NCBI GenBank assembly: GCA_964388455.1
Contig: CAYMAN010000008.1
Span: forward strand, 12,289 to 76,288
DNA from: an uncultured Eubacteriales bacterium
Lineage (GTDB): Bacteria; Actinomycetota; Coriobacteriia; Anaerosomatales; JAAXUF01
Reading direction: 5' to 3'
Length of the DNA stretch: 64,000 nt
The notes under the pieces are model-generated. The model was not told the origin of the DNA. It saw nothing but the letters and a program-made list of their open reading frames with translations, and did not search any database. A program made the position numbers and the translations under genes. Position 1 is the stretch's first letter, and the number at the start of each line of letters is the position of its first letter. Positions 3,181 through 34,505 of this stretch are shown piece after piece.

Positions 3181-4476
3181 ATGGGCATCGAACAGCGTTT
3201 ACAGGATGGAAGCGCCGTCTTTGGCGTTGTCGGTCTCGGATACGTGGGTCTGCCGCTCGCCGTCGAGATGGCGAAGGCCGGCCATCGCGTTGTCGGACTC
3301 GAGGTCTCTGAAGGCAAGACCACCGAGGTCAACGCGGGCCGCAGCTACATTCCAGACGTCCCCACAGAGGAACTCGCCGAGCTTGTCTCGGCGGGACTCA
3401 TCTCCGCCACCACTGACTTTTCGCGTGCGGGGGAGTGCGACGCGATCGCCATCTGCGTCCCCACGCCGCTCGACGAGATGAAGGAGCCCGACACCAGTTT
3501 CATGGAGTCGGCAGCCCGCATGATCACGCCGTACCTGCACCCCGACATGCTCATCACGCTTGAGTCCACGACGTACCCGGGCACCACTGAGGAGATCGTG
3601 CAGCCCATCCTCGAGGCGAACGGCCTCAAGGTCGGCACCGACCTCTTCCTCGCGTTCTCGCCTGAGCGCGTCGATCCCGGCAACCCGGTCTACCAGACCT
3701 TCAACACTCCCAAGGTCGTCGGTGGCGTCACCAAGGACTGCACCACGGTCGCCGTGGCGTTCTACCAGCGCTTCATCGAGACCATCGTGCCGGTCTCCTC
3801 GACGCGCGCCGCCGAGATGACCAAGCTGCTCGAGAACATCTTCCGTTGCGTCAACATCGCTCTCATGAACGAGCTCCTGCTGGTCAGCGAGCGCATGGGC
3901 ATCAACATCTGGGAGGTCGTCGACGCGGCCAAGACCAAGCCGTTCGGCTTCATGCCCTTCTACCCGGGTCCCGGTCTCGGCGGTCACTGCATCCCGATCG
4001 ACCCCTTCTACCTCTCGTGGAAGGCGCGTCAGTTCGACATGCACACCGAGTTCATCGAGCTCGCCGGCAAGACCAACGAGGCTATGCCGTACTACGTGGT
4101 CCAGCGCCTCATGAACGCGCTCAACACACATCGCAAGGCGCTCGCCGGTAGCCGCATCCTGATGCTCGGCGTCGCCTACAAGGCAAACATCGACGACATG
4201 CGCGAGTCCCCGGCCATCAAGATCGCCGAGCTCCTCGCCGACAAGCACGCCGACGTCGTGTTCCACGACCCCTACGTAGCAGAGTTCTCGGCAGGCGGGA
4301 GGAGCTTCCCGTCAGTCGAGCTCACCGCCGAGGAACTCGCTGCAGCCGACGCGGTCCTCGTCGTCACCGATCACACCAACGTCGACTACCACCTCGTGGT
4401 TCGCTCGGCGAAGCTGATCCTCGACACACGCAATGCTCTGAAGGCGTTCGACGACAACAAGGTGGTGCGTCTCTAG
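3181..4476 (+). CDS. Nucleotide-sugar dehydrogenase, WbpA-like UDP-GlcNAc 6-dehydrogenase
   Basis: GLGYVGLPLA, CVPTP, ESTTYPGTT, SPERVDPGN, GGHCIPIDP and DMRESP motifs; clustered with WbpB/D/E-like genes. Confidence 0.9.
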   Translation: MGIEQRLQDGSAVFGVVGLGYVGLPLAVEMAKAGHRVVGLEVSEGKTTEVNAGRSYIPDVPTEELAELVSAGLISATTDFSRAGECDAIAICVPTPLDEMKEPDTSFMESAARMITPYLHPDMLITLESTTYPGTTEEIVQPILEANGLKVGTDLFLAFSPERVDPGNPVYQTFNTPKVVGGVTKDCTTVAVAFYQRFIETIVPVSSTRAAEMTKLLENIFRCVNIALMNELLLVSERMGINIWEVVDAAKTKPFGFMPFYPGPGLGGHCIPIDPFYLSWKARQFDMHTEFIELAGKTNEAMPYYVVQRLMNALNTHRKALAGSRILMLGVAYKANIDDMRESPAIKIAELLADKHADVVFHDPYVAEFSAGGRSFPSVELTAEELAAADAVLVVTDHTNVDYHLVVRSAKLILDTRNALKAFDDNKVVRL

Positions 4477-5505
4477 ATGGCGAAGCCTGTCCGTATCGGC
4501 GTGGTGGGCTTTGGATACTGGGGCCCCAACCTCGTTCGCAATCTCGACAAGCTCGCCGACGCCCAGATCGTCGCTGCCTGCGACCTGTCGCAGGCCAACC
4601 TGGACAAGCTCTCGGGACTCTACCCGTACGTCGAGACGACGACCGACCTCGACGAGCTCCTGTCCGAGAAGTACTCGCTGGATGCGGTAGTCGTCGCGAC
4701 CTCGGCGCCGAGTCATTACGCGATCGCCAAGCGCGTCCTCGAGGCGGGCAAGCACTGCTACGTCGAGAAGCCACTGACGCTCAAGAGTGCCGATTCCGAG
4801 GAGCTCGTACGGCTGGCGGATTCCAAGGGACTCGTGCTGTTCGTCGGCCACCTGATGGAGTATCACTCAGCGATCAACTGGATCAAGGAGTACGTGGCCT
4901 CGGGTGACCTCGGCGACGTGCTTTACGTCTACATGCAGCGCCTGAACCTTGGCAAGGTCCGCACCGAGGAGAACGCCTTCTGGTCGCTGGCTCCCCACGA
5001 CGTCTCGATCGCGCTCTACGTGCTGGGCGAGTCGCCGGATTACGTGTCGGCCACGGGCGCGTCGTACGTGACGCCGGGCGTGCAGGACACCGTCTTCGCC
5101 AACCTGCATTTCCCCAGCGGCAAGATGGCCAACATCCACGTGAGCTGGCTCGACCCGCATAAGATGCGCAAGTTCACTGTGGTCGGCACCAAGAAGATGC
5201 TCGTCTTCGACGACATGGAGGCTACCGAGAAGATCGCCATCTACGACCGCGGCGTCGGTGCACCCGACGATGCGATGTCGTATGGCGAGGACCTCACCCT
5301 GCGCTTTGGCGACATCACGATGCCGTGGGTCCCGCTCAAGGAGCCGCTCTCCATCGAGGTCCAGCACTTCCTCGACTGCTGCGACACCGGCGCCACCCCG
5401 CGCAGCGATGGCCGAGACGGACTGCGCGTGGTCCGAGTGCTCGAGGCTGTCGGAGAGTCGATGGCCGCAGGTGGCGCACCGGTGAACACGAGCGTGGAGG
5501 TCTAG
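4477..5505 (+). CDS. Gfo/Idh/MocA oxidoreductase, WbpB/WlbA-like UDP-GlcNAcA 3-dehydrogenase
   Basis: GFGYWG Rossmann motif, VEKPL, HVSWLDPHK; context between the dehydrogenase and the acetyltransferase. Confidence 0.85.
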   Translation: MAKPVRIGVVGFGYWGPNLVRNLDKLADAQIVAACDLSQANLDKLSGLYPYVETTTDLDELLSEKYSLDAVVVATSAPSHYAIAKRVLEAGKHCYVEKPLTLKSADSEELVRLADSKGLVLFVGHLMEYHSAINWIKEYVASGDLGDVLYVYMQRLNLGKVRTEENAFWSLAPHDVSIALYVLGESPDYVSATGASYVTPGVQDTVFANLHFPSGKMANIHVSWLDPHKMRKFTVVGTKKMLVFDDMEATEKIAIYDRGVGAPDDAMSYGEDLTLRFGDITMPWVPLKEPLSIEVQHFLDCCDTGATPRSDGRDGLRVVRVLEAVGESMAAGGAPVNTSVEV

Positions 5506-5507
5506 CT

Positions 5508-6308
5508 ATGAGTGCGTACATTCATCCCACGGCCCTGGTGAACCCTGAGTTCGTCCCCGCGCCGTTCACGGTCATCGATGAAGGCGTCGCCATCTTCAAG
5601 GGCGTCACCATCGGCTCCTTTGTGCACGTGCATGCCGGCGCGAAGCTGCATGAGAACGTCACCATCGGCGATCACGTCACCATCCGCGAGGGCGCTGAGC
5701 TCCACGAGGGTGCGGTCGTCTCGAACTTCGCGATCGTGGGCAAGCGGCCCAAGCTGGGCGCGAACTCCACCGCCAAGGGCGGGGAGCTGCCGGGTGCGGT
5801 CATCGGCGCAGGTACTTCGATCGGCAGCCACACCGTGATCATGGCCGGCACGACCATCGGCGAGAACTGCATCGTCGGCGACAACGCGGGCATCCGCGAG
5901 CGCTGTGTGATCGGCGACAACGTCGTCGTGGGCCGCAGCGTCACGGTCGAGAACGACACCACCATCGGCAGCCGCACCAAGATCCAGAGCGGCGCCTACA
6001 TCACCGCCTACGTGACGCTGGAGGAGGATGTCTTCATCGCCCCCATGGTCGTCACCACCAACGACAACTACATGGGTCGCACCGAGAAGCGCTTCGCCGA
6101 GCTCAAGGGCTGCACGGTTCGCCGAGGAGCCCGCGTCGGCGGCGGCAGTCACATCCTCCCGGGTATCGAGATCGGCGAGGAGGCGTTCATCGCCACCGGC
6201 TCGGTCGTCACGCGCGACGTGCCCGCCAAGATGCTGGTTCTCGGCGTACCCGCAAAACCGGTCCGCGAGGTCTCAAGCGAGGAATTGCTCGAGAACCAGA
6301 AGCGGTAA
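5508..6308 (+). CDS. Hexapeptide-repeat N-acetyltransferase, WbpD/WlbB-like, with an extended left-handed beta helix
   Basis: Many [LIV]Gxxxx repeats; EEDVFIAPMVVTTND and GSVVTRDVP...GVPA motifs. Confidence 0.85.
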   Translation: MSAYIHPTALVNPEFVPAPFTVIDEGVAIFKGVTIGSFVHVHAGAKLHENVTIGDHVTIREGAELHEGAVVSNFAIVGKRPKLGANSTAKGGELPGAVIGAGTSIGSHTVIMAGTTIGENCIVGDNAGIRERCVIGDNVVVGRSVTVENDTTIGSRTKIQSGAYITAYVTLEEDVFIAPMVVTTNDNYMGRTEKRFAELKGCTVRRGARVGGGSHILPGIEIGEEAFIATGSVVTRDVPAKMLVLGVPAKPVREVSSEELLENQKR

Positions 6309-6408: not shown

Positions 6409-7515
6409 ATGGGTATCCCGCTGCTCGACCTCAAAGCCCAGTACCTCGACTTGAAGGAAGAGCTTGACGCCGTCTGGTTCGAGACGATGGGCAATGCGTC
6501 ATTCATCGGCGGACCCAAGGTCAAGGCGCTCGAGGCCCAGATCGCCGAGTACGTCGGCGCCAAGCACTGTGTCGCTTGTGGTAACGGCACCGACGCGCTG
6601 TTCCTGATACTCGCCGGGCTCGGCATCAGCAAGGGCGACGAGATCATCACGACGCCGTTCACCTTCTTCGCCACCGCCGAGTCGATCGCACACCTGGGCG
6701 CCAAGCCCGTGTTCGTCGATATCGAGCCCGGCACCTACAACATCAGCGTCGAGGCCATCAAGGCCGCGATCACGCCCGTGACCAAGGCGATCATGCCCGT
6801 CCACATCTTCGGCCAGTGTGCCGACATGGACGCCATCAACGCACTGGCCGAGGAGCATGGCCTCGTTGTCATCGAGGATGCCTGCCAGGCGATCGGCGCC
6901 ACCTACAAGGGCAAGATGGCGGGCTCGCTGGCCAAGGCCGCCGCATTCTCCTTCTTCCCCAGCAAGAACCTCGGATGCGCCGGCGACGGTGGCTGCATCA
7001 CGACCGACGACGACGAGCTCGCGGCGAAGTGTCGCAAGATCGCCGCGCACGGAACCAGCAAGAAGTACTACCACGACGCGATCGGCGTGAACTCGCGCCT
7101 GGATTCGTTGCAGGCAGCCATCCTGTCGGTCAAGCTGCCGCATCTGGACCGCTGGAACGGCGAGCGTCGTGCCGGCGCCGCGTACTACAACGAGCAGCTG
7201 GCGGGTCTTCCCGGTCTGGAGCTGCCGGTGGAGTTGCCTTATGGCGAGATGGTCTACCACCTCTACATCGTGAAGAGCGATCGCGCTGCAGACATCATGG
7301 CGGCGATGGCCGAGCGGGGAATCGGAACCGCGCTCTACTACCCGCTCGCGCTCCATGAGCAGGAAGCGTTCACGCTTCGCGAAGGTTACGTGAAGCCATC
7401 GCTTCCCGTCGCTGAGTCGTGCGATGGCAAGACGTTTGCACTTCCCTGCTTCCCGGGCATCACTCGCGAGCAGCAGGATGCCGTCGTGGCCGTAGTGAAG
7501 GGCGCTCTTAACTAG
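6409..7515 (+). CDS. DegT/DnrJ/EryC1/StrS PLP aminotransferase, WbpE-like
   Basis: GNGTDAL, TFFATAE, IEDACQA, SFFPSKNLG (PLP Lys) and NSRLDSLQAA motifs. Confidence 0.9.
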   Translation: MGIPLLDLKAQYLDLKEELDAVWFETMGNASFIGGPKVKALEAQIAEYVGAKHCVACGNGTDALFLILAGLGISKGDEIITTPFTFFATAESIAHLGAKPVFVDIEPGTYNISVEAIKAAITPVTKAIMPVHIFGQCADMDAINALAEEHGLVVIEDACQAIGATYKGKMAGSLAKAAAFSFFPSKNLGCAGDGGCITTDDDELAAKCRKIAAHGTSKKYYHDAIGVNSRLDSLQAAILSVKLPHLDRWNGERRAGAAYYNEQLAGLPGLELPVELPYGEMVYHLYIVKSDRAADIMAAMAERGIGTALYYPLALHEQEAFTLREGYVKPSLPVAESCDGKTFALPCFPGITREQQDAVVAVVKGALN

Positions 7516-9048
7516 ATGGGCAAGCATTCAGGTTCAGATAAAGGACGGAGAGTCGTAGGCAGCGGGGAGCACCCGCGGCCTCGTACCGGCTCACGCCGTG
7601 TCCCGGCCGAGCGTCGACGCCTTCCGGGCGAACGCGCGACCGCCGAGACGATGAGGGCGGGCGCCGAGACGTATCGGCTCTCTGACCCCTCGTCGCGCCG
7701 TCGCGGCTCACTTGAGACAGCGCCTGCTCGTCTCAAGATCGAGCGTGACAGGCGTCGCGCGCGTACCAAGCGCGTTGCTGTGCTTATCGCTGGCGCGCTT
7801 GCGGTGCTGACGTGTTTGGCGGCCGGCGGCGTCTTTGCGTACGCGAAGTACATCGAACGCACCATGCAGAGTACCGTCTTGCAGCAAGGCGAACTTGACG
7901 CCGTGCTCACCAAAGCCAAGCCCATGGAGCCGCTCAATATCCTGATTCTGGGCGCGGACTACCGTAAGGGTGACTTGAAGTACCGCACTGACTCGATGAT
8001 CGTTGCGCACGTGGACCCCCAGGCCAAGAAGATATGGTTGATCTCGATTCCGCGTGACACCCGTGTCGAGTACCCGGGACGTGGGGCGATCAAGATCAAC
8101 ACCGCGCACGTGTACGGTGGTGCCGCGGGCGCAGTGAGCGCGGTCGAGGACCTCACCGGCATGAAGATGAACCACTATCTCGAGGTCAACTTCAAGGGCT
8201 TCAAGAGGGCCGTCGACGCGATCGGTGGGGTCTGGATCGACGTCCCGGTCGCCATAGACGACAAACAGGCCGATCAGAGTCCCGGCAAGCGCGCCAGTAA
8301 GATCGACGCGGGCTACCAGCGACTCGACGGCGAGCATGCGCTCACCTTCGTGCGTGCGCGTCATCAGTTCGCCGACCAGGACTTCTCACGAATGAAGAAC
8401 CAGCAGTTGTTCTTCCTCGCGCTCGCGGACCAGATAGGCAAAGTCGGTAATGTCGCGAAGTTGCCGCAGATGGTCTCGGCCGTCGCCCCCTACATTCAGA
8501 CCGATATGTCGCTGGTGGAAATGATCAAGATGGCCCAGGCGTTGCGCGGCTCGGGGCGCGACAACATCTACACAGCCACGCTGAAGGGTGAGTGGAAATC
8601 ACCGTTCATCTACCCGGACACCGTGCTGCTGGCCAAGTTGATGAAGGACGTCAAAGAGGGCCGAAGCTTCGAGGCCACAGGCGCTGCGGATTCGTCAAAG
8701 ACCGTGGATGCCACCACGGCTTCGGTCAAGAAACCGTCACAGATCAAGATCACCGTGCGCAACGGTTCCGGACTGAACGGTGTGGCCAAGCAGGCTGCTT
8801 CGATCCTCAAGGCCAAGACGTTCGCGGTCGGTGAGGTCGGAAACGCCAATCAGAACGTCTACACCAAGACGATGATCATCTACAAAGACGATCTGGCCGC
8901 AGCGCAACTGGTCGCCTCGGCGATGCCGCCGGGAACCAAGATCGTCCAGAGCCGAGGGATGTACAGCTTCGACACCGACATCCTCGTGGTCGTAGGCAAG
9001 GACTGGGACGTCGCGAAGGTTCCTGCGGCGCCGGTCACCTCGCAGTAG
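7516..9048 (+). CDS. LCP (LytR-CpsA-Psr) glycopolymer-peptidoglycan ligase with C-terminal LytR_C domain
   Basis: Arg-rich N-tail, one TM helix, NILILGAD, RTDSM, SIPRDT, KINTA, ALTFVRAR and DFSRMKNQ motifs; C-terminal VRNGSG...DILVVVGKD. Confidence 0.93.
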   Translation: MGKHSGSDKGRRVVGSGEHPRPRTGSRRVPAERRRLPGERATAETMRAGAETYRLSDPSSRRRGSLETAPARLKIERDRRRARTKRVAVLIAGALAVLTCLAAGGVFAYAKYIERTMQSTVLQQGELDAVLTKAKPMEPLNILILGADYRKGDLKYRTDSMIVAHVDPQAKKIWLISIPRDTRVEYPGRGAIKINTAHVYGGAAGAVSAVEDLTGMKMNHYLEVNFKGFKRAVDAIGGVWIDVPVAIDDKQADQSPGKRASKIDAGYQRLDGEHALTFVRARHQFADQDFSRMKNQQLFFLALADQIGKVGNVAKLPQMVSAVAPYIQTDMSLVEMIKMAQALRGSGRDNIYTATLKGEWKSPFIYPDTVLLAKLMKDVKEGRSFEATGAADSSKTVDATTASVKKPSQIKITVRNGSGLNGVAKQAASILKAKTFAVGEVGNANQNVYTKTMIIYKDDLAAAQLVASAMPPGTKIVQSRGMYSFDTDILVVVGKDWDVAKVPAAPVTSQ

Positions 9049-14471: not shown

Positions 14472-14498
14472 CCCGCACTAGTTCAACGAGCATCAAGG

Positions 14499-19779: not shown

Positions 19780-19786
19780 CACCGCC

Positions 19787-22594: not shown

Positions 22595-22640
22595 GTCACG
22601 AACACGTTGTCAGCACATGCGTATCCAGGACGGAGTTTGC

Positions 22641-23651: not shown

Positions 23652-23658
23652 GCGCATC

Positions 23659-26409: not shown

Positions 26410-26413
26410 AACC

Positions 26414-27466: not shown

Positions 27467-28215
27467 GCGGGTCGGGTCGTGTCGTGGTCATCGCGCAGGC
27501 CCGCATGGGCTCGACGCGACTGCCCGGCAAGGGGCTGGTGGACCTGGCCGGCAAGCCGCTGGTGGAGCGTGTTCTCGAGCGCGCCGCGCGATCCACACTC
27601 GCCGATGAGGTCGTGCTCGCGACCACGGACCTACCGGCCGACGACGAACTGGCGGCATGCGTCGACGCACTCGGCTTCCGAGTGGTCCGCGGTAGCTCCG
27701 AGGATGTGCTCGCCCGTTACGCCCGTGCCGCCGAGGAGTCCGATGCCGACGTGATCGTGCGCATCACCTGTGACTGCCCGTTTGTGGAGCCGTGGCTGAT
27801 CGATCGAGCCGTGACCGCAGTCGCAGACGACGGATTCGATTACGCAACCAACACGCTGGTCCGCACCTATCCGATAGGTCTTGATGTCGAGGCGCTCACC
27901 CGCCCTGCGCTGGGCCAGGCAGATGCCGAGGCTCACGAGCCGCACGAGCGCGAGCACGTCACGCCGTTCATCTATCAGCACCCGACTCGCTTTCGGTTGA
28001 GTAACCTCACGGCGCCCGGGTGGGCGACGTATCCGGAATGGCGGTTGACCGTCGATACCGCTGAGGATCTGGAGCTGGCGCGCATGCTCTACGCCGGGCT
28101 GCCGGACCGGTTCACGCTCGCGGAAACCGTCGATCTGGTGCTGCGGGACCCCTCGGTTCTCGAAACGAATAGCCGCGTTCCCCATAAGCATGTTGCCAAG
28201 CCGGAGACCTGGTGA
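27463..28215 (+). CDS. SpsF-type cytidylyltransferase (probable CMP-Pse synthetase, PseF role)
   Basis: QARMGSTRLPGK, RGSSEDVLARY, RITCDCP, REHVT and RLTVDT motifs; GTGA overlap with pseI. Confidence 0.85.
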   Translation: MSGSGRVVVIAQARMGSTRLPGKGLVDLAGKPLVERVLERAARSTLADEVVLATTDLPADDELAACVDALGFRVVRGSSEDVLARYARAAEESDADVIVRITCDCPFVEPWLIDRAVTAVADDGFDYATNTLVRTYPIGLDVEALTRPALGQADAEAHEPHEREHVTPFIYQHPTRFRLSNLTAPGWATYPEWRLTVDTAEDLELARMLYAGLPDRFTLAETVDLVLRDPSVLETNSRVPHKHVAKPETW

Positions 28216-28333: not shown

Positions 28334-30472
28334 GTGAACACTACACACCTCGGCATGCACCGAGTGGCAGCATGGGCGGCAGTCGTCGTCACGGCAGCGG
28401 CCGTGCTCATGACCCCCTCGATCGCACACGCAGACGTCACCTACACCATCACCGGTGGCGGTTGGGGTCACGGCATCGGCCTTTCGCAGTGGGGCGCTCA
28501 GGGCTACGCGAAGCAAGGCTGGTCCTACGCCGACATCGTCCGTTGGTACTACGGTGCCGACAAGGACGGATCGAGCAGCGGGGTGCAGGTACCTACGCTC
28601 GCGTCGCTCGGCAAGAACGCCAATCCGTACGTCAACGTCGACCTAGATAAGTCCAAGGCCACGCGGAAGTCGTGGACGCTGCGTGGATGGCAGTCGCGAC
28701 TCAAGGTCAGCGACAACGCGGGTACTACACCGATCTATCTCGCCAAGAACAGCTACAACAAGTTCACCGTCTCCGGCGGCAAGGTGAAGGTGGGGACGTC
28801 GACGTTCTCGGGAACGGTCACCATCCAGTCCGTTGACGCGGCTTCCTCGGGCAATCTTGTCGTCGTCAAGGACAACAGCGGACCTCCGCTGCACAAGAAC
28901 TATCCAAACGGCTACTCGTATCTGCGCTATCGCGGCGTGATTCGGTTGACCGTCGTGGGTGACAAGCTTCGCTGCGTGAACCGTCTGCGGATGGAGCAGT
29001 ATCTGTACGGCGTCGTGCCCCGTGAGAGTCCATCGTCGTTTGATGCAGATGCACTCGGAGCGCAGGCAATAGCGGCCAGGTCGTACGCTTGGGCGAGCAA
29101 CCCGCCCACAGCGGGCACTCCGTCGGCGCTCTCCGGCACCCTGTACTGCACGACGAGCAGCCAGGTGTACGGCGGACACTCGCGCCTGGTCGGCGGCAGC
29201 GACACCAACATCGACCCGCATGAGGCCGCGAGCACCAACGCTGCGGTCGACGCGACTGCGGGCAAAATCGTCTACCACGCTCCGACCAAGGTCGTGGTCA
29301 AGGCGTTCTTCTCGTCATCTTCTGGCGGACACACCGCCAACGTCGAGGATGTCTGGGTCACAGGGGACCCCAAGCCGTACTACAAGGGCGTGGCCGATGC
29401 CGACCAAGGAACCGCCAACTACGCCTGGCCGCCGGTGCAGAAGACAGGGGCGCAGATAGGCGAGGCCCTGCGCGACAAGGACAACGGCTCGAGCAACACC
29501 GCTCCGCTCGACTACTCCGCCCCGTCGCCCGCGACGGTGAGCTCGGTGTCACTGGAGAAGGCGTCATCAGGTTACGTTCGCTACATGACGGTGAAGTGGT
29601 CCAACGGGTCGTCCTATCGGATACAAGGCACCACGTTCCAGAGTGCACTGGGTCTTAAGTCGAGCAAGTTCAACGTCGCGGTTCCGTCGTTTGGGACGCG
29701 TTACGAGCAGACCGACACACGCATCGCGTACGTGGACACGTGGTCGACCTACTCCACCGGCAATATGTCGGGTGGTTCGTACCGGTTTGCTTCGCGTGTC
29801 GGTCCCACCGCGACCATCATGTTCACCGGCACCGGTTTCCGCTGGATCGCGCCGACGGCCGCATCGTACGGTAAGGCCGACGTGTATCTCGACGGCGTGA
29901 AGCAGACGACTGTCTCGCTGTACTCGTCGACCACCAAGTACAAGCAAGAGGTCTGGAGCGTCACGGGTCTGGCGGCGGGTCCCACCCACAAGGTGCAGAT
30001 CGTTCCGCTCGGCACGAAGGAGGCTGCGAGCAAGGGCGTCTACGTTGGCATCGATGCCGTTGAGATTGCAGACGGAGGCCTCAGTAGGGCGCCCAAGACT
30101 CGTTGGGAACAAAACGATTCGGCAATCGGCTCGAGAGGCACATGGACCAACAACGTCAACTCGGTCATGTCCAGCGGCAGCTATGCCTGGAGCACATCGC
30201 CCACGGCGTGGAAGCGCCTGTACTTCACCGGTACCGGCGTGAAGTGGATCACCGCGACCAACTCCACGTACGGCAAGGCGTGGGTGTACGTCGACCAGCG
30301 CGCCCCCGTGCTGGTGGATCTGTACTCGGCCAGCGTACAGCCGCGCGTCGCGGTCTACGATTCAGGGACACTGCCGGCCGGCACGCACGCCATCAGAATC
30401 GTGCCCGCGGGCCAGAAGAACGACGCTTCGACCGGCACGTACGTCGGGGTCGATGCGTTCGATGTTCGCTAG
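28334..30472 (+). CDS. Secreted SpoIID/LytB-domain lytic transglycosylase-like protein with two C-terminal beta-sandwich (CBM-like) repeats
   Basis: Signal peptide AHA; GWGHGIGLSQWGA, EQYLYGVVPRE, AQAIAARSY, QVY and FSSSSGGHT motifs; duplicated FTGTG.(R/K)WI...YGKA.VY.D domains. Confidence 0.88.
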   Translation: MNTTHLGMHRVAAWAAVVVTAAAVLMTPSIAHADVTYTITGGGWGHGIGLSQWGAQGYAKQGWSYADIVRWYYGADKDGSSSGVQVPTLASLGKNANPYVNVDLDKSKATRKSWTLRGWQSRLKVSDNAGTTPIYLAKNSYNKFTVSGGKVKVGTSTFSGTVTIQSVDAASSGNLVVVKDNSGPPLHKNYPNGYSYLRYRGVIRLTVVGDKLRCVNRLRMEQYLYGVVPRESPSSFDADALGAQAIAARSYAWASNPPTAGTPSALSGTLYCTTSSQVYGGHSRLVGGSDTNIDPHEAASTNAAVDATAGKIVYHAPTKVVVKAFFSSSSGGHTANVEDVWVTGDPKPYYKGVADADQGTANYAWPPVQKTGAQIGEALRDKDNGSSNTAPLDYSAPSPATVSSVSLEKASSGYVRYMTVKWSNGSSYRIQGTTFQSALGLKSSKFNVAVPSFGTRYEQTDTRIAYVDTWSTYSTGNMSGGSYRFASRVGPTATIMFTGTGFRWIAPTAASYGKADVYLDGVKQTTVSLYSSTTKYKQEVWSVTGLAAGPTHKVQIVPLGTKEAASKGVYVGIDAVEIADGGLSRAPKTRWEQNDSAIGSRGTWTNNVNSVMSSGSYAWSTSPTAWKRLYFTGTGVKWITATNSTYGKAWVYVDQRAPVLVDLYSASVQPRVAVYDSGTLPAGTHAIRIVPAGQKNDASTGTYVGVDAFDVR
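29696..30469 (+). repeat. Two tandem ~134-aa domain repeats (402-nt period)
   Basis: TRYEQTD...SGGSY...FTGTGFRWI...YGKADVY...YVGIDA at 29696 versus TRWEQND...SSGSY...FTGTGVKWI...YGKAWVY...YVGVDA at 30098. Confidence 0.85.
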
Positions 30473-30517: not shown

Positions 30518-31879
30518 GTGAGCTGCGACGTACTGAGTCTCGAGTGGTCGAGCGCCGGCCGTGACATCGAGATCGTCGAACCGGTCCTGTGCCATCTCGA
30601 GATGACGCAGGGCCTCGTCGTTCGCCGCGAGTCCATTCTCGACGCTCCCGCTGTGATCGCCGAGGCGAAACCCCGCCTGCTGCTGATCTCGAACCAGGGT
30701 GGCGCGACCCCCAACTTCCGTGCGGTGCGATTCGCGTCGCAGCGGGGGGTGCCGGTGGTGACACTCGTGTCCGAGGGGATGTTCCCTGACGACTCTCAGA
30801 CGGTGCAGCGCATGTGGTGGGGCAACAACACCGACGAGGTCGTCTACGAGAATCTGAACCTCCAGTGGTCGCAGCGCTCAGTCGACCTGATCAGAGGTTA
30901 CGTTCCCGGTGCCGAGGAGTTTCCGATCGAAGTCTCCGGTGCAACCGGATTCGATCGCTACCGGCTCTTCACGTGGGCCTCGCGTGAGCAGTTGTTGCAG
31001 CGGCTCCAGCGCCCCGGCTTCTCTCGGATCGTCGGATTCGCAGGATGGACGTTCTGTCACGTGCTCGGCTCGTACTACGAGCGCAATCGTGACGCGGTCG
31101 ACATCGTCGTGGGTGGCCCCGCCGCCGCCGAGAAGCACGCTGCCCAATTGCCCGAGGTGCGGACGGTTCTGCGTCAGGCGGTCGATGCCAATCCGGACGT
31201 GCTGTTCGTTCTCAAGGAGCATCCAGGACTGACCGACGCCGAGTTCTCTGAGTTCTCCGAGCTTGGCGATCGCCCGAATGTGGTCATCGTCGGTCGTGCC
31301 GGCGCTGGTTCCGACATCAACGTCTCCGACCTCATCAGTGCGTCGGACCTGTGGCTCGCCTACGAGTCGACCACTACACTCGAGGCGTGGATGCTTGCGA
31401 CGCCGACCGCGCTCGTCAACCCCCTCGGCGACTTCAAGCGCTCGCGGGTCTCGGGCGGTAGTCCGCTCTACACGACTCTTGCACAGCTGCAATCTGCCAT
31501 CGATGCGATCCGCGACGACCTCCCGATTCCCGGCTTCGACGAGCTCGAAGGCCGCCGCCGTGAGCTCGAGGCCGAGGTCATCGGCTACTCCGACGGGGCC
31601 AACCACGTTCGAGCCGCGCAGTGGGTGCAGAAGGTGCTGGAGGACCCGGGCGCCGCGCACCCCAGCGCGCTCGGCGACGACGCGAGCGCGGAGCTGACGC
31701 GAGCGCGGCGCACTCGGCTGCTCGAGCGGCTGGGGGTCTTGCGCCTGCCGCGGTATCGTCGGCTGCGCGAGGAGCGTGCCCGGATGCGGGCCAAGTACGA
31801 TCCTGCGGAGCGCGAGCAGATCCGAGCGCGCTATACCCGGGCGCTCGCGGAGTTCCATGGCAGCGAGGCGGGCTCATGA
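30518..31879 (+). CDS. Uncharacterised GT-B-fold protein, candidate CMP-nonulosonate (pseudaminyl) transferase
   Basis: GATGFDRY, FVLKEHP and SDLWLAYESTTTLEAWML resemble the KxHP and S-T-x-x-x-E-A motifs of CMP-ulosonate transferases; near the pse operon. Confidence 0.6.
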   Translation: MSCDVLSLEWSSAGRDIEIVEPVLCHLEMTQGLVVRRESILDAPAVIAEAKPRLLLISNQGGATPNFRAVRFASQRGVPVVTLVSEGMFPDDSQTVQRMWWGNNTDEVVYENLNLQWSQRSVDLIRGYVPGAEEFPIEVSGATGFDRYRLFTWASREQLLQRLQRPGFSRIVGFAGWTFCHVLGSYYERNRDAVDIVVGGPAAAEKHAAQLPEVRTVLRQAVDANPDVLFVLKEHPGLTDAEFSEFSELGDRPNVVIVGRAGAGSDINVSDLISASDLWLAYESTTTLEAWMLATPTALVNPLGDFKRSRVSGGSPLYTTLAQLQSAIDAIRDDLPIPGFDELEGRRRELEAEVIGYSDGANHVRAAQWVQKVLEDPGAAHPSALGDDASAELTRARRTRLLERLGVLRLPRYRRLREERARMRAKYDPAEREQIRARYTRALAEFHGSEAGS

Positions 31880-32652
31880 GGATCATCATCCTGTCGGATT
31901 CACTTGGCCGACCTCGGCCACATCTTGCCGCCGAGGAAGCGACGGAGTACGAGCAGACATACGGCTACCTGCTGCGTACCGCGCTGGACGCAGCCGACGA
32001 GGTCGAGATCGCGTACGTGGAGTCGCTCGACTCGATCGAAGCGCGTCACTGGTCGCAGCGCATGGTGGCGTATCGGCGCCCGGACGTCGCCATCTTCCAC
32101 TTTGGCATCAACGACTGCGCGCCACGGCTCTTCAAGAAGGGTAACCGCGCGCTCGCGCTGCGACCGTGGTTCCGCAAGGCGACCGGGGACGTCGTGATGA
32201 AGACGATGAGCCGTTACCGCCGGCACGTGACGCGTCTGCGCCCGATGACCTACACAACGCCCGCCGAGTTCGAGGCGAACCTCCGCCATGTCGTCGAGGA
32301 CGTGCGCACCTACAGCCCGGAAGCCAGCTTCATCGCGATCTCCATCGCGCTCGCACCCGAGCGACTCAACCGCCGCAGCACCGGCATGAACGCGAACGTC
32401 GTCGCCTACAACGCCATCATCGAGCGAGTCTTTGGCGACGGCTACGTCGAGATCAACGAGCTCACGGGCGGCGAATCGGGCCTGCTCTCCGACGGCATCC
32501 ACCTCACCGCCACCAGTCACGAGCGCCTCGCCGAGGAACTCGAGCGCCGGATACGGGCGCTGCCGCACTCGGTGTCGGGCACGAGGCCAGGCGCGGCGCC
32601 GGGCACGCTGCCGGAAGCGGCGCCGGGCGCTCCACTGGAAGCGGCGGAGTAG
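31876..32652 (+). CDS. SGNH/GDSL hydrolase family protein
   Basis: Block I SDSLG, block III FGINDC, block V DGIH; ATGA overlap with the upstream gene. Confidence 0.85.
   Translation: MRIIILSDSLGRPRPHLAAEEATEYEQTYGYLLRTALDAADEVEIAYVESLDSIEARHWSQRMVAYRRPDVAIFHFGINDCAPRLFKKGNRALALRPWFRKATGDVVMKTMSRYRRHVTRLRPMTYTTPAEFEANLRHVVEDVRTYSPEASFIAISIALAPERLNRRSTGMNANVVAYNAIIERVFGDGYVEINELTGGESGLLSDGIHLTATSHERLAEELERRIRALPHSVSGTRPGAAPGTLPEAAPGAPLEAAE
32593..32646 (+). repeat. Short imperfect 24-bp tandem repeat (2.25 copies) encoding the AAPGxxxE tail
   Basis: GCGGCGCCGGGCACGCTGCCGGAA, GCGGCGCCGGGCGCTCCACTGGAA, GCGGCG. Confidence 0.7.
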
Positions 32653-32654
32653 CC

Positions 32655-34505
32655 ATGTGCGGAATCACCGGATTCGTCTCCCTCAATCGGCCGAGAAGCC
32701 TCCACGGCTATTACGACGCGCATCGGCTCATCGCGCACCGCGGACCCGACGACGAGGGCTTCGTCGTCGATGACGGCCGCTCGTGTCGCCCTCTACGTGG
32801 CGATGACTCGATCGCCCACTTCGACGCGCTCGCGCCGCTTGCCAGCATCGCCGATGCCGAGTGCGTCCTCGGCCACAGGCGCCTCGCGATCATCGATCTG
32901 ACGCATCAGGGGCACCAGCCGTTCTCGGACTCGACCGGGCGCTACTGGCTCGCCTACAACGGTGAGCTCTACAACTACCTCGAGCTGCGCGCCGAGCTGG
33001 TCACGCTCGGTCACGAGTTCCACACGGATTCCGATACCGAGGTCGTCTTGCACGCGATCATCGAGTGGGGGAACGAGGCGTACGGACGCTTCAACGGTAT
33101 GTGGTCCACGGCGCTCTGGGACTCGCGGGAACGCACGCTGCAGCTCTGCCGAGACCGCTTTGGCATCAAGCCGCTCTACCTCTCGCGCGCCGATGGTGCC
33201 GTGTGGTTCGCAAGCGAGTTGCGCTTCTTGCTGGCTCTGGCGCCGATAGCCGCGACGCCCGACGCGGTCGCCATCGACGACTACCTGCGCCGCTCCTGGC
33301 TCAGCCACTCGGAACGCACGATGGTCTCCGGCATCGAGGAGCTCCCGCCCGGGCACAGCCTCACCATCACCGCCGACGGCGAGCGGATGCACCGCTACTG
33401 GACCTTCGAGCCGCACCCGGTGCGTCGATCCGCCGAGGAAGCGCTCGACGAGTTCGCGGCCATCTTCGAGGACTCGCTGCGACTGCGGATGCGAGCTGAC
33501 GTCGAGGTCGGCACGCTGCTTTCGGGCGGTCTCGACTCGTCGCTTATCGTGGGCGGGCTGCATCGCCTCGGGCTCATCGGCGAACACGGGTTCAAGGCGT
33601 TCTCGGCGGACTTCGACGATGTGCGGTTCAGTGAGCGTCGCTTCGCCGACCTGGTCGCTGGGCGCGTCGGCGCCGAGCAGCACATCATCAAGCCGAGCTG
33701 GGACGAACTCGCGGGTGGAGGACTCGACGCGCTCATCGACACCATCGAGGAGCCGTTCCGCTCGCTGTCGGTCCACTCGCAGAACCGCATCTACCGTGCC
33801 GTGCGCGCCGAGACCGGCGTGACGGTGCTACTCAACGGCCAGGGCGCCGACGAGCTCTTTGGCGGCTATACGCGGCACTACTGGCAGCACATCGCCGCGC
33901 TGCTGCGGAAGGGCCGCGTGCCGTCGGCGATTCGCGAGGCGCGGGTCTTCTCGGCGGAGCGCGACGTGGCGTCAAAGGCGCTGCTGTCGGGCGTGTGGCG
34001 CAAGTACAAAGAGGCGCTGCGCACGCCCGACTACTTCAACCGCGTGACGTTTGGCGAGGTCACGCACTCGGCGCTGCGCGAGTACTTGCGCTACGACGAC
34101 CGCAACTCGATGGCGTACAGCCTCGAGGCACGCGTGCCGTTCCTTGACTACCGCCTGGTGGAGTTCGCGTTCACGCTCGACGATCGATTCAAGATCGACG
34201 ATCGCGAGAACAAGCTCATCGAACGCCGTTACGCGCGGGGCATAGTGCCTGATGAGGTCGTCGACCGCACGGATAAGATGGGCTTCGTCTCGCCCCAAGA
34301 GGTGTGGCAGCGTACCGTGATGCGCGCCGATCTCGAGGCTGCGCTGCCCGGTATGGAGGCGTCGCCCGTGTTGGGGGCGCTGGCCGGCCGTGACGGCTAC
34401 CTCGACCGCTACCGGTCGTATCTCGCGGGGACCAGCAACGACTGGGCGTTCGCGTGGCGCATGTACTGCCTGTCGCGCTGGGCGACGCTCCGCGGCTTCG
34501 CGTAG
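32655..34505 (+). CDS. asnB: Asparagine synthase (glutamine-hydrolysing)-family amidotransferase
   Basis: MCGI N-terminal nucleophile, HRGPD, HRRLAIIDL, NGELYN, RDRFGIKPL, LSGGLDSS, GQGADE and EARVPFLD motifs. Confidence 0.93.
   Translation: MCGITGFVSLNRPRSLHGYYDAHRLIAHRGPDDEGFVVDDGRSCRPLRGDDSIAHFDALAPLASIADAECVLGHRRLAIIDLTHQGHQPFSDSTGRYWLAYNGELYNYLELRAELVTLGHEFHTDSDTEVVLHAIIEWGNEAYGRFNGMWSTALWDSRERTLQLCRDRFGIKPLYLSRADGAVWFASELRFLLALAPIAATPDAVAIDDYLRRSWLSHSERTMVSGIEELPPGHSLTITADGERMHRYWTFEPHPVRRSAEEALDEFAAIFEDSLRLRMRADVEVGTLLSGGLDSSLIVGGLHRLGLIGEHGFKAFSADFDDVRFSERRFADLVAGRVGAEQHIIKPSWDELAGGGLDALIDTIEEPFRSLSVHSQNRIYRAVRAETGVTVLLNGQGADELFGGYTRHYWQHIAALLRKGRVPSAIREARVFSAERDVASKALLSGVWRKYKEALRTPDYFNRVTFGEVTHSALREYLRYDDRNSMAYSLEARVPFLDYRLVEFAFTLDDRFKIDDRENKLIERRYARGIVPDEVVDRTDKMGFVSPQEVWQRTVMRADLEAALPGMEASPVLGALAGRDGYLDRYRSYLAGTSNDWAFAWRMYCLSRWATLRGFA

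Follow-up and report, generated by a model that had tools for sequence, protein, structure and literature searches.

CWB2 surface proteins in a conserved LCP-linked acidic-sugar locus of a Coriobacteriia-like genome

In the genome studied here, an acidic-sugar locus linked to an LCP gene also contains genes for secreted triple-CWB2 proteins, as the first-pass annotation had proposed, and we found that this linkage recurs across the order. The pseudaminic acid (Pse) genes in the same interval, which that annotation had made part of the CWB2 anchor, did not follow: they are absent at the site in 21/21 relatives, and among the genomes compared only this one carries the cassette here; it is not a shared anchor. 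Our preferred reading, held with moderate confidence, is of a Cwp-like system carried by a uronic-acid polymer that the LCP enzyme attaches, with the Pse cassette as an accessory. Named homologues of proteins encoded in the window (the whole stretch of 64,000 nucleotides analysed) were Coriobacteriia, including Anaerosoma tenue, and Bacillota were absent among the names of the homologues found, which bears out the suggested Coriobacteriia-like, non-Bacillota placement; judged from these sequences, the closest named relative is Anaerosoma tenue, order Anaerosomatales (OPB41). Gene occurrence was compared between 67 genomes sampled from the order and 83 elsewhere in the class, and locus organization among 21 relatives chosen for usable contigs, a non-random set in which kin are non-independent.

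Polymer locus and its conservation

The region at about 3.1-45 kb would be the main secondary-cell-wall-polymer locus, at a fixed chromosomal site from atp/murA/fabZ to pnp/ahcY. Apart from the CWB2 and Pse regions listed further below, it comprises:

3130..4476, +, WbpA/WecC-like NDP-N-acetylhexosamine 6-dehydrogenase (TIGR03026, 426.6 bits; cut-off 189.8)
4477..5505, +, WbpB-like GFO/IDH/MocA oxidoreductase, 3-dehydrogenase step of the 2,3-diacetamido pathway (NF040723, 146.9 bits, below the cut-off of 450; family level only)
5502..6308 (start approximate, ORF from 5325), +, WbpD-like hexapeptide N-acetyltransferase (Hexapep 132 bits; NeuD/PglB/VioB 117.8, below the cut-off of 160.8)
6409..7515, +, WbpE-like DegT-family sugar aminotransferase (PF01041, 413 bits)
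7516..9048, +, LCP glycopolymer-to-peptidoglycan ligase with C-terminal LytR_C (PF03816, 146 bits; PF13399, 57.9 bits)
9035..10261, -, glycosyltransferase GT4a (Pfam)
10274..11572 (start approximate, ORF to 11935), -, UDP-glucose 6-dehydrogenase, TuaD/Ugd-like, giving UDP-GlcA (TuaD 469.6 bits, below the cut-off of 700; TIGR03026 418.8)
19745..21007, +, glycosyltransferase GT4b, 44 nt 3' of the amidase gene and co-oriented with it
21004..22605, -, Wzx-type polysaccharide flippase (profile matches)
28334..30472, +, SpoIID/LytB-domain protein with two tandem CE2_N-like beta-sandwich modules of ~125 aa
37780..44980, mixed strands, core segment: GT4d (-), GT4e (-), GT4f, Wzy_C polymerase/ligase (about 41700-43034), membrane ORF (42971-43780), GT4g
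44980..47144, +, PNP-family phosphorylase and AhcY, the right-hand border

As shown at the level of sequence families, the encoded enzyme classes lead to UDP-2,3-diacetamido-2,3-dideoxy-hexuronic acid (WbpA/B/D/E-like) and UDP-GlcA (Ugd); their specificities, namely a Glc or Man configuration and the succession of oxidation and amination, are suggested by family-level scores. The gene order atp-murA-fabZ-WbpABDE-LCP-GT4-Ugd-Wzx/Wzy_C-GTs-SpoIID-pnp-ahcY recurs across the order. An LCP orthologue (36-66% identity) occupies the same site in 21/21 relatives, eight of which carry the complete WbpABDE-LCP-GT4a-Ugd run (65-83% identity; LCP 43-53%), while PNP and AhcY were both found in 20, the 40 kb stretch of the other (G083) stopping short of them. 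GT4a is at the locus in 13/21 (61-75% identity), beside Ugd in 11 of those 13, and the Wzx flippase in 11/21 (41-64%), with a further 27% match in G042; GT4a and Ugd are missing at the locus in five CWB2-bearing relatives (G099, G109, G101, G133 and G061). Orthologues of the WbpD-like and WbpE-like proteins in relatives showed 62-76% and 69-77% identity, and core orthologues in order genomes 60-67% (GT4d), 42-55% (GT4f), 33-47% (Wzy_C) and 47-55% (GT4g). The WbpA-like dehydrogenase was present in 64/67 order genomes (61 full-length at 69-83% identity, 3 partial at contig ends), including 16 of the 19 CWB2-poor ones. A WbpB orthologue (at least 65% identity) was found in 47/67, including 33/42 CWB2-rich and 11/19 CWB2-poor genomes, and was not found in 9/42 CWB2-rich ones. 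The diacetamido-uronate genes are conserved order-wide and do not separate the two groups, and none of the tested sugar genes tracked CWB2 abundance among order genomes.

All 15 relatives with at least 11 repeats have CWB2 genes within the LCP-to-ahcY interval, where 31 ORFs over 205.6 kb (one for about every 6.6 kb) amount to a density ~20x that of this genome overall (16 in 2.38 Mb). The first-pass annotation had suggested checking the co-localisation of CWB2, LCP and pse/wbp genes; CWB2 and LCP genes keep company across the order, and pse genes are found at the locus in 0/21 relatives. In L039, PD40 and CAP CWB2 proteins lie between WbpEDB and Ugd, and the CWB2 gene found in the interval of nearly every CWB2-bearing relative comes after the SpoIID match, a position that may be mere clustering of wall-remodelling genes. 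The only orthologue of the SpoIID protein checked (G003) has SpoIID plus three CWB2 repeats, the triplet standing where the protein described here has its CE2_N-like modules.

CWB2 proteins in the window and the genome

Three secreted triple-CWB2 proteins had been placed between the LCP/diacetamido-uronate genes and the flippase/Pse genes, and both Pfam searches and translations confirmed this:

12624..14471, +, CWB2 protein A: leader, two beta-sandwich domains (CarboxypepD_reg/pilin/SdrD-B-like), C-terminal type II CWB2 triplet
14640..16343, +, CWB2-Ldt protein: N-terminal type II CWB2 triplet and YkuD L,D-transpeptidase domain
16595..17926, +, secreted M6/InhA-like metalloprotease with a basic C-terminal tail, without CWB2 (TIGR03296, 125 bits; cut-off 110.8)
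18027..19700, +, CWB2 amidase: Amidase_3 N-acetylmuramoyl-L-alanine amidase and C-terminal type I CWB2 triplet

PF04122 (CW_binding_2) matched in all three ORFs, namely 12537/12624-14471 (E 1.2e-26, two repeats scored and the third visible from the fold), 14640-16343 (E 7.7e-30, three repeats, with YkuD at 7.3e-24) and 17943/18027-19700 (E 8.2e-44, three repeats, with Amidase_3 at 9.1e-47), and translations read by eye showed N-terminal hydrophobic leaders ending Ala-x-Ala at starts 12624, 14640 and 18027. That the repeats are true CWB2 is further supported by the AF2 model of protein A (pLDDT 87.3), whose top PDB match was Cwp6 (5j72, E 8.4e-20) and which resembled SlpA-HMW (7acy_B/7acx; TM 0.71-0.72 on target, rmsd 3.9-4.0), and by the amidase, a Cwp6 homologue by sequence (5j72_A, E 5.1e-44) with its domain order reversed relative to the C. 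difficile protein. The PILL motif P[ILV][ILV][ILVT] is present in 3/3 repeats of protein A and of the amidase and in 2/3 of the Ldt protein; Willing 2015 reports that changing the whole motif to AAAA in any single repeat abolished anchoring and that the proline alone was dispensable (PMC4973711). Orthologues of the Ldt protein (50-83% identity) adjoin LCP or protein A in relatives, and C. difficile Cwp22, going by its title, is a comparable cross-linking enzyme. For the metalloprotease, an orthologue was not found at the locus in the relatives examined. Protein A evolves fast and is a candidate major surface protein: its exposed N-terminal half was more divergent than its anchor in 19/19 homologues, comparable to the faster divergence of the exposed half described for SlpA (bioRxiv 10.1101/2025.04.02.646754), and on contigs paired by equal recorded length AhcY was 99% identical where protein A was only 72% or 81%. 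The SlpA equivalog model scored 45-51 bits, far under its cut-off of 650.

Genome-wide, 47 CWB2 repeats make up 16 triplet proteins, whose other domains include Amidase_3, YkuD, NlpC/P60, two S8, M28, reprolysin-like, BNR, GDSL, InlB-B and beta-sandwich domains. The 16 modules fall into two clades of 8 and are all basic (pI 8.95-11.3, net charge +3 to +20), and the remainder of the protein has a pI of at most 7.1 in 10/16. PF04122 occurs in 58/67 order genomes, often with dozens of repeats per genome, versus 9/83 elsewhere in the class, and SLH shows the opposite distribution (0/68 versus 13/83). According to Desvaux 2018 (PMC5817068), CWB2 had already been catalogued in Actinobacteria; at the level of a domain census, its presence beyond Clostridia was known before.

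Pse cassette and its neighbours

The genes for CMP-pseudaminic acid and those that follow them are:

22593..28215, +, Pse cassette: PseB, C, G, H, I and a cytidylyltransferase
22593-23651, +, PseB (528.9 bits; cut-off 407.75)
23659-24822, +, PseC (524.6 bits; cut-off 423.5)
24819-25871, +, PseG (256.5 bits; cut-off 153.55)
25831-26409, +, PseH (128.7 bits; cut-off 93.1)
about 26450-27466, +, PseI (507.4 bits; cut-off 340.25)
about 27463-28215, +, cytidylyltransferase (PseF model 34.9 bits, below the cut-off of 205.7; Pfam CTP_transf_3, 111 bits)
30518..31879, +, BFO_1060/Tanf_01245-family glycosyltransferase (NF046086, 325.5 bits; cut-off 200)
31900..32652 (start approximate), +, GDSL/SGNH hydrolase or acyltransferase (PF13472, 36.7 bits)
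32652..34505 (start approximate), +, AsnB-type glutamine amidotransferase (TIGR01536, 408 bits), with its stop at 34505
34578-35966, -, GT4c, genome-specific cassette
35972-37783, +, fused ABC exporter of MsbA/PglK/HepA type, genome-specific cassette

The pathway had been described as full, and because the cytidylyltransferase falls below the PseF cut-off, this now means five of six equivalogs over cut-off plus a CMP-sugar synthetase at family level only. The BFO_1060-family enzyme is a candidate Pse transferase, as the T. forsythia family is described as adding Pse or Leg derivatives onto ManNAcA (PMC5420450); the GDSL/SGNH protein is possibly an enzyme of glycan O-acetyl handling, and the AsnB-type protein a candidate uronamide- or acetamidino-forming enzyme. 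PseI exceeded its cut-off in 7/67 order genomes, among them G107, which is without CWB2. Only five of the seven belong to the 42 CWB2-rich genomes, and Pse is therefore not a general CWB2 ligand. NulO synthases of any kind were found in 14/19 CWB2-poor versus 10/42 CWB2-rich order genomes. In the three relatives having both on one contig, PseI and the WbpA-like dehydrogenase are 95-103 kb apart, and orthologues of protein A and Ldt are paired without Pse genes in L029, as they are in L028 on a contig of only 3.4 kb. Since flagellin was not found in the genome and cultured members of the order are described as non-motile (PMC9686372), flagellin is not the Pse target.

Proposed and alternative explanations

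In the reading that we prefer, a phosphate-poor, carboxylate-rich (teichuronic-type) polymer would be built on undecaprenyl phosphate, its synthesis begun by the product of the WecA/TagO-family gene found upstream of the atp operon (C8:5689-6156), and the glycan would be flipped, polymerised and then joined to peptidoglycan by the LCP enzyme. CWB2 trimers, all basic, would bind without a covalent bond to this polymer or to a different anionic polymer of the wall, a step modelled on the binding of C. difficile Cwp proteins to PS-II, which would put amidase, L,D-transpeptidase, proteases and adhesin-like proteins into the wall. The CMP-Pse cassette, with the T. forsythia-type nonulosonate transferase, amidotransferase, GDSL enzyme, GT4 and ABC exporter, would be an accessory insertion in the lineage, and its most likely role, to which we give slightly better than an even chance, would be to add a cap or branch to that lipid-linked glycan, with a HexNAc-uronate as acceptor; surface chemistry would then be varied, and CWB2 would recognise something other than Pse.

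There is a small chance that the linkage is incidental, with CWB2 binding peptidoglycan or some polymer not linked to the locus, for instance a lipoteichoic-type one or that of the genome's second LCP gene (contig C59), and its position reflecting the clustering of amidase, Ldt and SpoIID with murA and LCP. Two of the three CWB2 proteins in the window are indeed peptidoglycan enzymes, the CWB2 gene conserved in relatives is the SpoIID-linked one, 13/16 CWB2 genes lie dispersed outside the window's polymer locus, and CWB2 number does not co-vary with the tested sugar genes, but the uniformly basic modules, the ~20-fold density and the non-enzymatic CWB2 proteins of the interval (protein A; PD40 and CAP in L039) argue otherwise, as does the finding that C. 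difficile Cwp2 and SlpA no longer bind HF-stripped peptidoglycan (PMC4973711). We regard as improbable an S-layer formed or served by the CWB2 proteins, with a ligand polymer of Pse, GlcNAc3NAcA and GlcA and the Pse pathway functionally coupled to the anchor: the rarity of PseI in CWB2-rich genomes and its presence in CWB2-free G107, the Pse-free locus of all 21 relatives examined, the distance of PseI from the dehydrogenase, the protein A-Ldt pairs without Pse genes, the low SlpA equivalog scores and the single SecA found in the genome all weigh against it, although the adjacency of CWB2 and Pse genes in the window, the HexNAc-uronate acceptor of the Pse transferase family, the basic modules and the SlpA-like divergence of protein A would fit.

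A modest chance remains that the Pse glycan is O-linked to protein, as in T. forsythia on the S-layer and further surface proteins, and is not a wall polymer; undecaprenyl phosphate would serve as its carrier during assembly, the PglK-like ABC or Wzx would flip it, and the Wzy_C protein would transfer it as oligosaccharyltransferase to surface proteins, possibly the CWB2 proteins. The Wzy_C family of Pfam covers polymerases and also O-antigen ligases and O-oligosaccharyltransferases, and the cassette comes with a fused ABC exporter of its own, similar to PglK, MsbA and HepA; an ABC of 47% identity to it stands beside the NulO genes of G099, distant from the LCP locus of that genome. The BFO_1060-family transferase, as described in PMC5420450, is known solely from a general protein O-glycosylation system. 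However, Wzy_C belongs to the conserved core and is present in Pse-negative relatives as well, and so does not serve the Pse glycan exclusively; moreover, the locus-defining enzyme is an LCP ligase, and nonulosonate wall polymers, the teichulosonic acids, are reported as established in Actinomycetota (PMC11481543).

CWB2 proteins of the window and of the genome

An ORF listing combined with Pfam and NCBIfam profile scans yielded the map below, on a window background of 64% G+C. Because this map shows three CWB2 genes standing between LCP and acidic-sugar genes on one side and flippase and pseudaminic acid (Pse) genes on the other, the gene order described in the first-pass annotation was read correctly.

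Features of the window, by window position (strand stated where minus)
16-3104, atpD, atpC, murA and fabZ
3130-4476, NDP-N-acetylhexosamine 6-dehydrogenase (WbpA-like)
4477-5505, WbpB-like oxidoreductase
about 5502-6308, hexapeptide acetyltransferase (WbpD-like)
6409-7515, DegT aminotransferase
7516-9048, LCP ligase with LytR_C
9035-10261, minus strand, GT4a
10274 to about 11572, minus strand, Ugd
12624-14471, CWB2 protein A
14640-16343, CWB2-YkuD protein (Ldt)
16595-17926, secreted M6/InhA-like metalloprotease without CWB2, C-terminal tail strongly basic
18027-19700, Amidase_3-CWB2 protein
19745-21007, GT4b
21004-22605, minus strand, Wzx flippase
22593-28215, PseB, PseC, PseG, PseH, PseI and a cytidylyltransferase
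28334-30472, SpoIID/LytB-domain protein
30518-31879, BFO_1060-family glycosyltransferase
about 31900-34505, GDSL enzyme and AsnB-type amidotransferase
34578-37783, GT4c (minus strand) and a fused ABC exporter
37780-44980, four further GT4 genes, a Wzy_C protein and a small membrane ORF
44980-47144, pnp and ahcY
47248-63711, second glycan cluster (Wzz/Wzx/Wzy/Rml), G+C 59-62%, below the window background

A promoter and terminator scan of 11400-23000 found no promoter-like site, and its 7 terminator-like sites compare with 5.1 ± 2.0 in shuffles. The host had been taken to be Coriobacteriia-like and not a member of the Bacillota, and the named homologues of AhcY and of protein A agree on this. 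Among the best 120 AhcY homologues, most of them nameless, those with organism names were Coriobacteriia MAGs (91, 89, 82 and 82% identity), 'Actinobacteria bacterium HGW-Actinobacteria-7' (86%) and Anaerosoma tenue (82%), with no Bacillota among the names. Named homologues of protein A comprised eight '[Coriobacteriia bacterium]' MAGs, two '[Actinomycetota bacterium]' entries and one Microcella, and the Atlas clusters nearest to it were labelled Actinomycetota. The LCP-LytR_C architecture is likewise described as typical of Actinomycetota in the available text of PMC11481543.

The repeats called CWB2 in the first-pass annotation matched PF04122 in all three window ORFs (E-values 1e-26 to 8e-44), with three repeats scored in the Ldt protein, three in the amidase protein and two in protein A, whose third repeat carried no Pfam score and was revealed by an AlphaFold2 model built from an alignment of 20 homologues (pLDDT 87.3, pTM 0.75). 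The predicted trimer fold was also borne out: searched against the PDB with Foldseek, this model matched Cwp6 (5j72_A, E 8.4e-20), SlpA-HMW and Cwp8 at the top, all from C. difficile, and it aligned with SlpA-HMW (7acy_B/7acx) at a TM-score of 0.71-0.72 on the target and an rmsd of 3.9-4.0. The fold comparison covers protein A by model and the amidase protein by sequence alone, the latter matching Cwp6 (5j72_A) at E 5.1e-44 and over its CWB2 stretch at an i-Evalue of 1e-27, with its two domains, unlike those of Cwp6, in the opposite order. The motif P[ILV][ILV][LV] was present in 3/3 repeats of protein A, 3/3 of the amidase protein and 2/3 of the Ldt protein, where GVLLL stands at that site in the third repeat; several paralogues of the same module clade retain one strict match. 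En bloc mutation of the PILL-type motif showed its necessity for Cwp66 anchoring (Willing 2015, as given in the available part of PMC4973711). All three translations also carry, on a by-eye reading, a hydrophobic leader and an AxA site. Judged by profile and modelled fold, the window repeats are true CWB2.

Genome-wide, PF04122 matched 47 repeats in 16 proteins of three repeats each, and the 13 proteins outside the window each scored three. The enzymatic partner domains were Amidase_3, YkuD, NlpC/P60, two S8 subtilases, M28, a reprolysin-like protease and GDSL, alongside BNR, InlB-B repeats, beta-sandwich arrays and a Met/Pro-rich segment, and the family thus composed probably holds enzymes in the wall of these bacteria. 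A tree of the 16 triplet modules resolved two clades of eight each (bootstrap/aLRT 98/96), type I with the amidase protein and type II with protein A and the Ldt protein together. All 16 modules are basic (pI 8.95-11.3, net charge +3 to +20), and the remaining, non-CWB2 part has a pI of 7.1 or less in 10/16 proteins. Five type II modules (three on contig C21, in a row, and those at C3:7973 and C5:46099) are closely alike, at 291-515 bits pairwise, a similarity that suggests recent duplication or shuffling. One type I triplet belongs to a Met/Pro-repeat wall protein (G000:C2:42134-43531). The genome further carries one sortase, one SecA and two LCP genes, and a PF00395 search for SLH found none in it.

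Whether protein A forms an S-layer was examined from its similarity to SlpA and from its rate of change. The SlpA equivalog NF033435 reached 45.2 and 50.7 bits (cut-off 650), over CWB2 stretches alone, so that protein A does not look SlpA-like beyond its CWB2 module. Its N-terminal half was modelled as two beta-sandwich domains of the pilin/SdrD-B kind (Foldseek). The exposed half diverged faster than the anchor in 19/19 homologues (61% versus 83% identity, for example), and in pairs inferred to share a contig AhcY was 99% identical against 72% or 81% for protein A, a pattern that fits an exposed major surface protein but goes no further than that. For cultured members of the order (Anaerosomatales, OPB41), the available text of PMC9686372 describes a Gram-positive wall and pili-like appendages, and the word 'S-layer' does not occur in that text.

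The predicted wall-polymer locus in Anaerosomatales

The ligase at 7516-9048 scored 146 bits with PF03816 (cut-off 24.6), 137.3 with TIGR00350 (62.3) and 57.9 with LytR_C (22.2). Enzyme classes of the WbpA/B/D/E type are all four adjacent in the window, in a block conserved in the order; the dehydrogenase alone passed a curated cut-off, that of a subfamily model, while the WbpB-like and WbpD-like proteins scored 146.9 bits against 450 and 117.8 against 160.8, and no model scored was Wbp-specific. A WbpI-type 2-epimerase, the enzyme that would set the gluco or manno configuration, was not seen among the scanned window ORFs. About 6 kb before the window start, upstream of the atp operon and with murA downstream, lies a WecA/TagO-family (PF00953) gene (G000:C8:5689-6156), which is likely to encode the initiating transferase for the polymer locus; Mycobacterium has a similar wecA-atp-murA order.

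Synteny was followed from murA onward in 21 relatives, namely five genomes of the same family and 16 of the wider order that were picked for contigs with room and deliberately included four CWB2-poor ones. The murA-fabZ, LCP and pnp-ahcY genes occupied the same site in 21/21, except that the 40 kb stretch of one relative (G083) ends before ahcY. The series WbpA-WbpB-WbpD-WbpE-LCP-GT4a-Ugd, the last two on the minus strand, was complete in 8/21, with identities of 65-83% for the sugar enzymes and 43-53% for LCP; two more relatives have WbpB at the locus, and most of these relatives also carry Wzx, GT4d, GT4f, Wzy_C, the small membrane ORF, GT4e and GT4g. Because these genes recur at the locus in wider order genomes, the diacetamido-uronate genes and most window glycosyltransferases are ancestral to the order and were lost in the sister genera of the family. 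The five same-family genomes had made WbpB, WbpE and most glycosyltransferases look like insertions specific to the genome under study, an interpretation overturned by the 16 wider genomes.

A profile of the 16 triplets found CWB2 ORFs in the LCP-ahcY interval of 15/15 relatives with at least 11 repeats and of 0/6 with three or fewer; these intervals hold 31 CWB2 ORFs in 205.6 kb, against 16 in the 2.38 Mb of the whole genome under study, and the rest of the fetched relative DNA holds two further ones only. Several relatives carry orthologues of the Ldt-CWB2 (50-58% identity) and amidase-CWB2 (53-57%) proteins. Protein A and the Ldt protein are adjacent in two metagenome loci (L028, 74/83%; L029, 50/69%), a third (L035) holds a trio of A-like, Ldt and amidase CWB2 genes, and locus L039 has two CWB2 genes between WbpEDB and Ugd and a third after a Ugd-adjacent nucleotidyltransferase gene. 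The metagenome-contig scan found no relative with protein A as single query and 31 loci with an alignment of homologues, most on short contigs; a genome-contig scan with the amidase-CWB2 query gave 170 pattern matches, of which one was confirmed, a Myxococcales amidase at 28% identity. Of the co-localisation of CWB2, LCP and pse/wbp genes that the first-pass annotation proposed as a check, the link between CWB2 and the LCP locus thus held in 15/15 CWB2-bearing relatives and the link to Pse in 0/21.

A CWB2 match lies directly 3' of the SpoIID match in nearly all CWB2-bearing relatives, and in the single such gene scanned, from genome G003 (L060:3964-6201), the SpoIID orthologue ends in a CWB2 triplet. 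The SpoIID protein of the window, encoded immediately 3' of the Pse cassette, ends in two tandem CE2_N-like beta-sandwich modules of ~125 aa (Pfam CE2_N 22.6 bits, below the 27.9 cut-off; Atlas 0.87, a lead). Since the two orthologues differ in this way, this wall enzyme seems to have exchanged one anchor domain for another. A degenerate CWB2 module as the source of this C-terminus was rejected, since hmmsearch E-values with the 16-triplet profile ranged from 0.06 to 1.5 and the best blastp E-value was 0.33. The M6 protease has no orthologue at the polymer locus in the relatives examined; a putative role in processing surface proteins is conceivable.

Class-wide distribution and the place of pseudaminic acid

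The sample comprised 150 further genomes of the class, of which 67 share the order and 83 belong to different ones. PF04122 was matched in 58/67 same-order genomes versus 9/83 elsewhere, there mostly as single weak matches, and SLH (PF00395) in 0/68 genomes of the order, the one under study included, versus 13/83 elsewhere, some genera having dozens of repeats. CWB2 and SLH are therefore partitioned within this sample of Coriobacteriia. Outside the order, CWB2 was matched in one family only (f18, 9/24), at least one genome of which (G062) matched both CWB2 and SLH; in another family (f22, SLH in 9/30 genomes), some genera use SLH heavily.

The 67 order genomes were grouped by repeats scored into rich (at least 18, n = 42), middle (6-11, n = 6) and poor (0-3, n = 19), a limit of 35 scored candidates per genome making the repeat counts lower bounds, with first-look candidates up to 153. 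PseI exceeded its cut-off in 7/67 (5/42 rich, 1/6 middle, 1/19 poor), and any NeuB-family match at E ≤ 1e-40 occurred in 27/67 (10/42, 3/6 and 14/19). The WbpA-like dehydrogenase was found in 64/67 (41/42, 6/6 and 17/19; full-length matches at 69-83% identity, and three partial ones at contig ends), and a WbpB orthologue at ≥65% identity in 47/67 (33/42, 3/6 and 11/19), with three more genomes holding WbpB paralogues only (44-46%). These are plain counts, to which no statistics were attached because the sampled genomes are related to one another. None of PseI, NeuB, WbpA-like or WbpB tracked CWB2 abundance, and nonulosonate synthesis, if anything, ran opposite to it; that NeuB is commoner in CWB2-poor genomes hints, from counts among kin genomes, at alternative surface chemistries.

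The full Pse pathway reported by the first-pass annotation stood for five of its six steps. The equivalogs exceeded their cut-offs for PseB (528.9 bits versus 407.75), PseC (524.6 versus 423.5), PseH (128.7 versus 93.1), PseG (256.5 versus 153.55) and PseI (507.4 versus 340.25), and the PseF equivalog TIGR03584 fell below it (34.9 versus 205.7); the gene directly after PseI encodes a family-level CMP-sugar synthetase (CTP_transf_3, 111 bits versus 22.6). The idea that Pse belongs to the CWB2 ligand is not supported, with PseI in 5/42 CWB2-rich genomes and Pse genes at the site in 0/21 relatives. At the locus, PseBCGHI with the cytidylyltransferase, the BFO_1060-family transferase, the GDSL enzyme, the AsnB-type amidotransferase, GT4c, the ABC exporter, the M6 protease and the SpoIID variant with CE2_N-like modules are all specific to the genome under study. 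Other NeuB-like genes occupy the site in two CWB2-poor relatives, G147 and G042, and PseI lies 95-103 kb from the dehydrogenase in the three PseI-positive relatives that have both on one contig. A ligand read from adjacency in one genome would have named pseudaminic acid wrongly. The nonulosonate clusters of two relatives from sister genera (G109 and G099; L024-L027) form a separate locus ~100 kb from the LCP site, and that of G099 includes an ABC exporter sharing 47% identity with the one in the window.

As to where the Pse product goes, we lean slightly towards its ending on the wall polymer through LCP, because the cassette is inserted within the LCP locus and because actinomycetes are already known to have nonulosonate wall polymers (PMC11481543, available text). 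The transferase that follows the cassette belongs to the BFO_1060/Tanf_01245 family (NF046086, 325.5 bits versus 200, over model positions 1-365 of 365), and a HexNAc-uronate acceptor from the polymer locus would, by analogy, fit it. The glycan of T. forsythia contains uronamide. There, family members (Tanf_01245 / TFUB4_00887) place terminal Pse or Leg derivatives in general O-glycosylation, transferring them onto ManNAcA (Tomek 2017, PMC5420450, in the part available). The likeness to that system lies in a CMP-Pse locus followed by an NF046086-family transferase, with a HexNAc-uronate acceptor available and an amidotransferase nearby. T. forsythia is a Gram-negative member of the Bacteroidota that makes a protein-linked oligosaccharide, whereas the cassette studied here belongs to a monoderm and lies within its LCP-linked wall-polymer locus. 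A protein O-glycan as the product is, in our estimate, unlikely. Flagellin glycosylation was dismissed, a Flagellin_N search of the 96.7% complete genome having returned no match.

Relation to characterised anchoring systems

To our knowledge, CWB2 anchoring has been worked out in C. difficile only, with one ligand, PS-II, a phosphodiester-linked hexasaccharide. In that species CWB2 triplets of the Cwp family dock on PS-II, whose locus contains LcpA/LcpB and adjoins slpA/cwp (Willing 2015, PMC4973711; Chu 2016, PMC5065235; and PMC10100865, each in part). The genome under study resembles it in having triple CWB2 modules, N- or C-terminal, on many secreted proteins, with the same predicted fold (5j72, 7acy) and, in most window repeats, a PILL-type motif; in paralogues that include a Cwp6-homologous amidase, proteases and an L,D-transpeptidase (comparable, going by a paper title, to Cwp22); and in CWB2 genes that adjoin a polymer locus holding flippase and LCP. 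By this analogy the system may work like the Cwp/PS-II/Lcp arrangement, with a putative ligand. The apparent differences are the phylum and class (Actinomycetota, Coriobacteriia), a predicted uronic and diacetamido-uronic chemistry by a Wzx/Wzy_C route, two divergent module clades within a single genome, one SecA with no SecA2 found, and no SlpA-like LMW/HMW protein identified.

For the predicted chemistry the closest counterpart is Geobacillus stearothermophilus, where wild-type S-layer proteins bind a non-pyruvylated SCWP with 2,3-diacetamido-2,3-dideoxymannuronic acid (Sleytr 2014, PMC4232325, available text). A diacetamido-uronate wall polymer as negatively charged ligand for non-covalent anchoring in a Gram-positive wall would be shared, both structure and ligand role being inferred in our case; anchoring there goes, in the same text, through a conserved stretch at the N-terminus that has neither SLH nor CWB2, and the organism belongs to the Bacillota. 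Some actinomycetes have Pse-containing polymers. The phosphate-free acidic wall polymers of Actinomycetota described in the available part of PMC11481543 carry the nonulosonate Kdn rather than Pse, and no docking of CWB2 proteins on these teichulosonic/teichuronic acids is described in that part; Streptomyces CglA there (LCP-LytR_C) has the same architecture as the ligase at 7516-9048.

In Peptostreptococcaceae, SLH and CWB2 anchoring systems are swappable together with cognate SCWP enzymes (bioRxiv 10.1101/2025.04.02.646754, in part). Coriobacteriia are alike in that whole systems are present or absent by lineage, a single order having CWB2 and families elsewhere SLH, and in the SpoIID protein with CWB2 in G003 and CE2_N-like modules here. 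In Peptostreptococcaceae, comparing gene-family content with anchor distribution singled out CD2777 and TagA; no single co-distributing SCWP enzyme was found in the order sample studied here. The SLH/CWB2 partition thus recurs inside Actinomycetota; the words 'Actinobacteria', 'Actinomycetota' and 'Coriobacteri' are absent from the main text of this Firmicutes study as far as it was available. CWB2 in Actinobacteria is already in print as a domain census (PMC5817068, available text), the only item found on CWB2 with Coriobacteriia, and 23 papers mentioning PF04122 or CW_binding_2 include no title on an actinobacterial CWB2 system.

CWB2 dominates an entire order of Coriobacteriia, with its genes in a conserved wall-polymer locus of a predicted chemistry quite different from PS-II, and the order has cultured members (Anaerosoma tenue, Parvivirga hydrogeniphila), so that CWB2 recognition, by charge pattern or by specific sugar, becomes directly testable. 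A broader reading, possible yet doubtful in our estimate, is that the whole surface of Anaerosomatales/OPB41-type Coriobacteriia is built on CWB2, docked on an LCP-attached diacetamido-uronate/glucuronate teichuronic polymer. Each 2-Mb genome would then encode dozens of CWB2 proteins docking on an order-specific polymer, the product of the conserved murA-to-ahcY locus; the two clades (8 + 8) might read two polymers or states, such as core and Pse-capped, and the fast-evolving protein A would form a lattice or serve as a major coat protein. If true, a CWB2/ligand pair would be known for the first time from outside the Bacillota, and its ligand would be of a different chemistry. Members of the order are subsurface hydrogen- and iron-respiring bacteria, and the CWB2 system may position partners of extracellular electron-transfer machinery.

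Beyond ahcY, the cluster at 47248-63711 holds GT4s, a radical-SAM/SPASM gene, a PMT_2 GT-C enzyme, Wzz, a flippase, Wzy, a GHL15/CBM protein and RmlA/C/B, and most likely represents a variable locus for exopolysaccharide or capsule; G109 has counterparts of some of these genes beyond its own ahcY, with identities of 71-78% for GT4h and the radical-SAM gene and 36% for GHL15.
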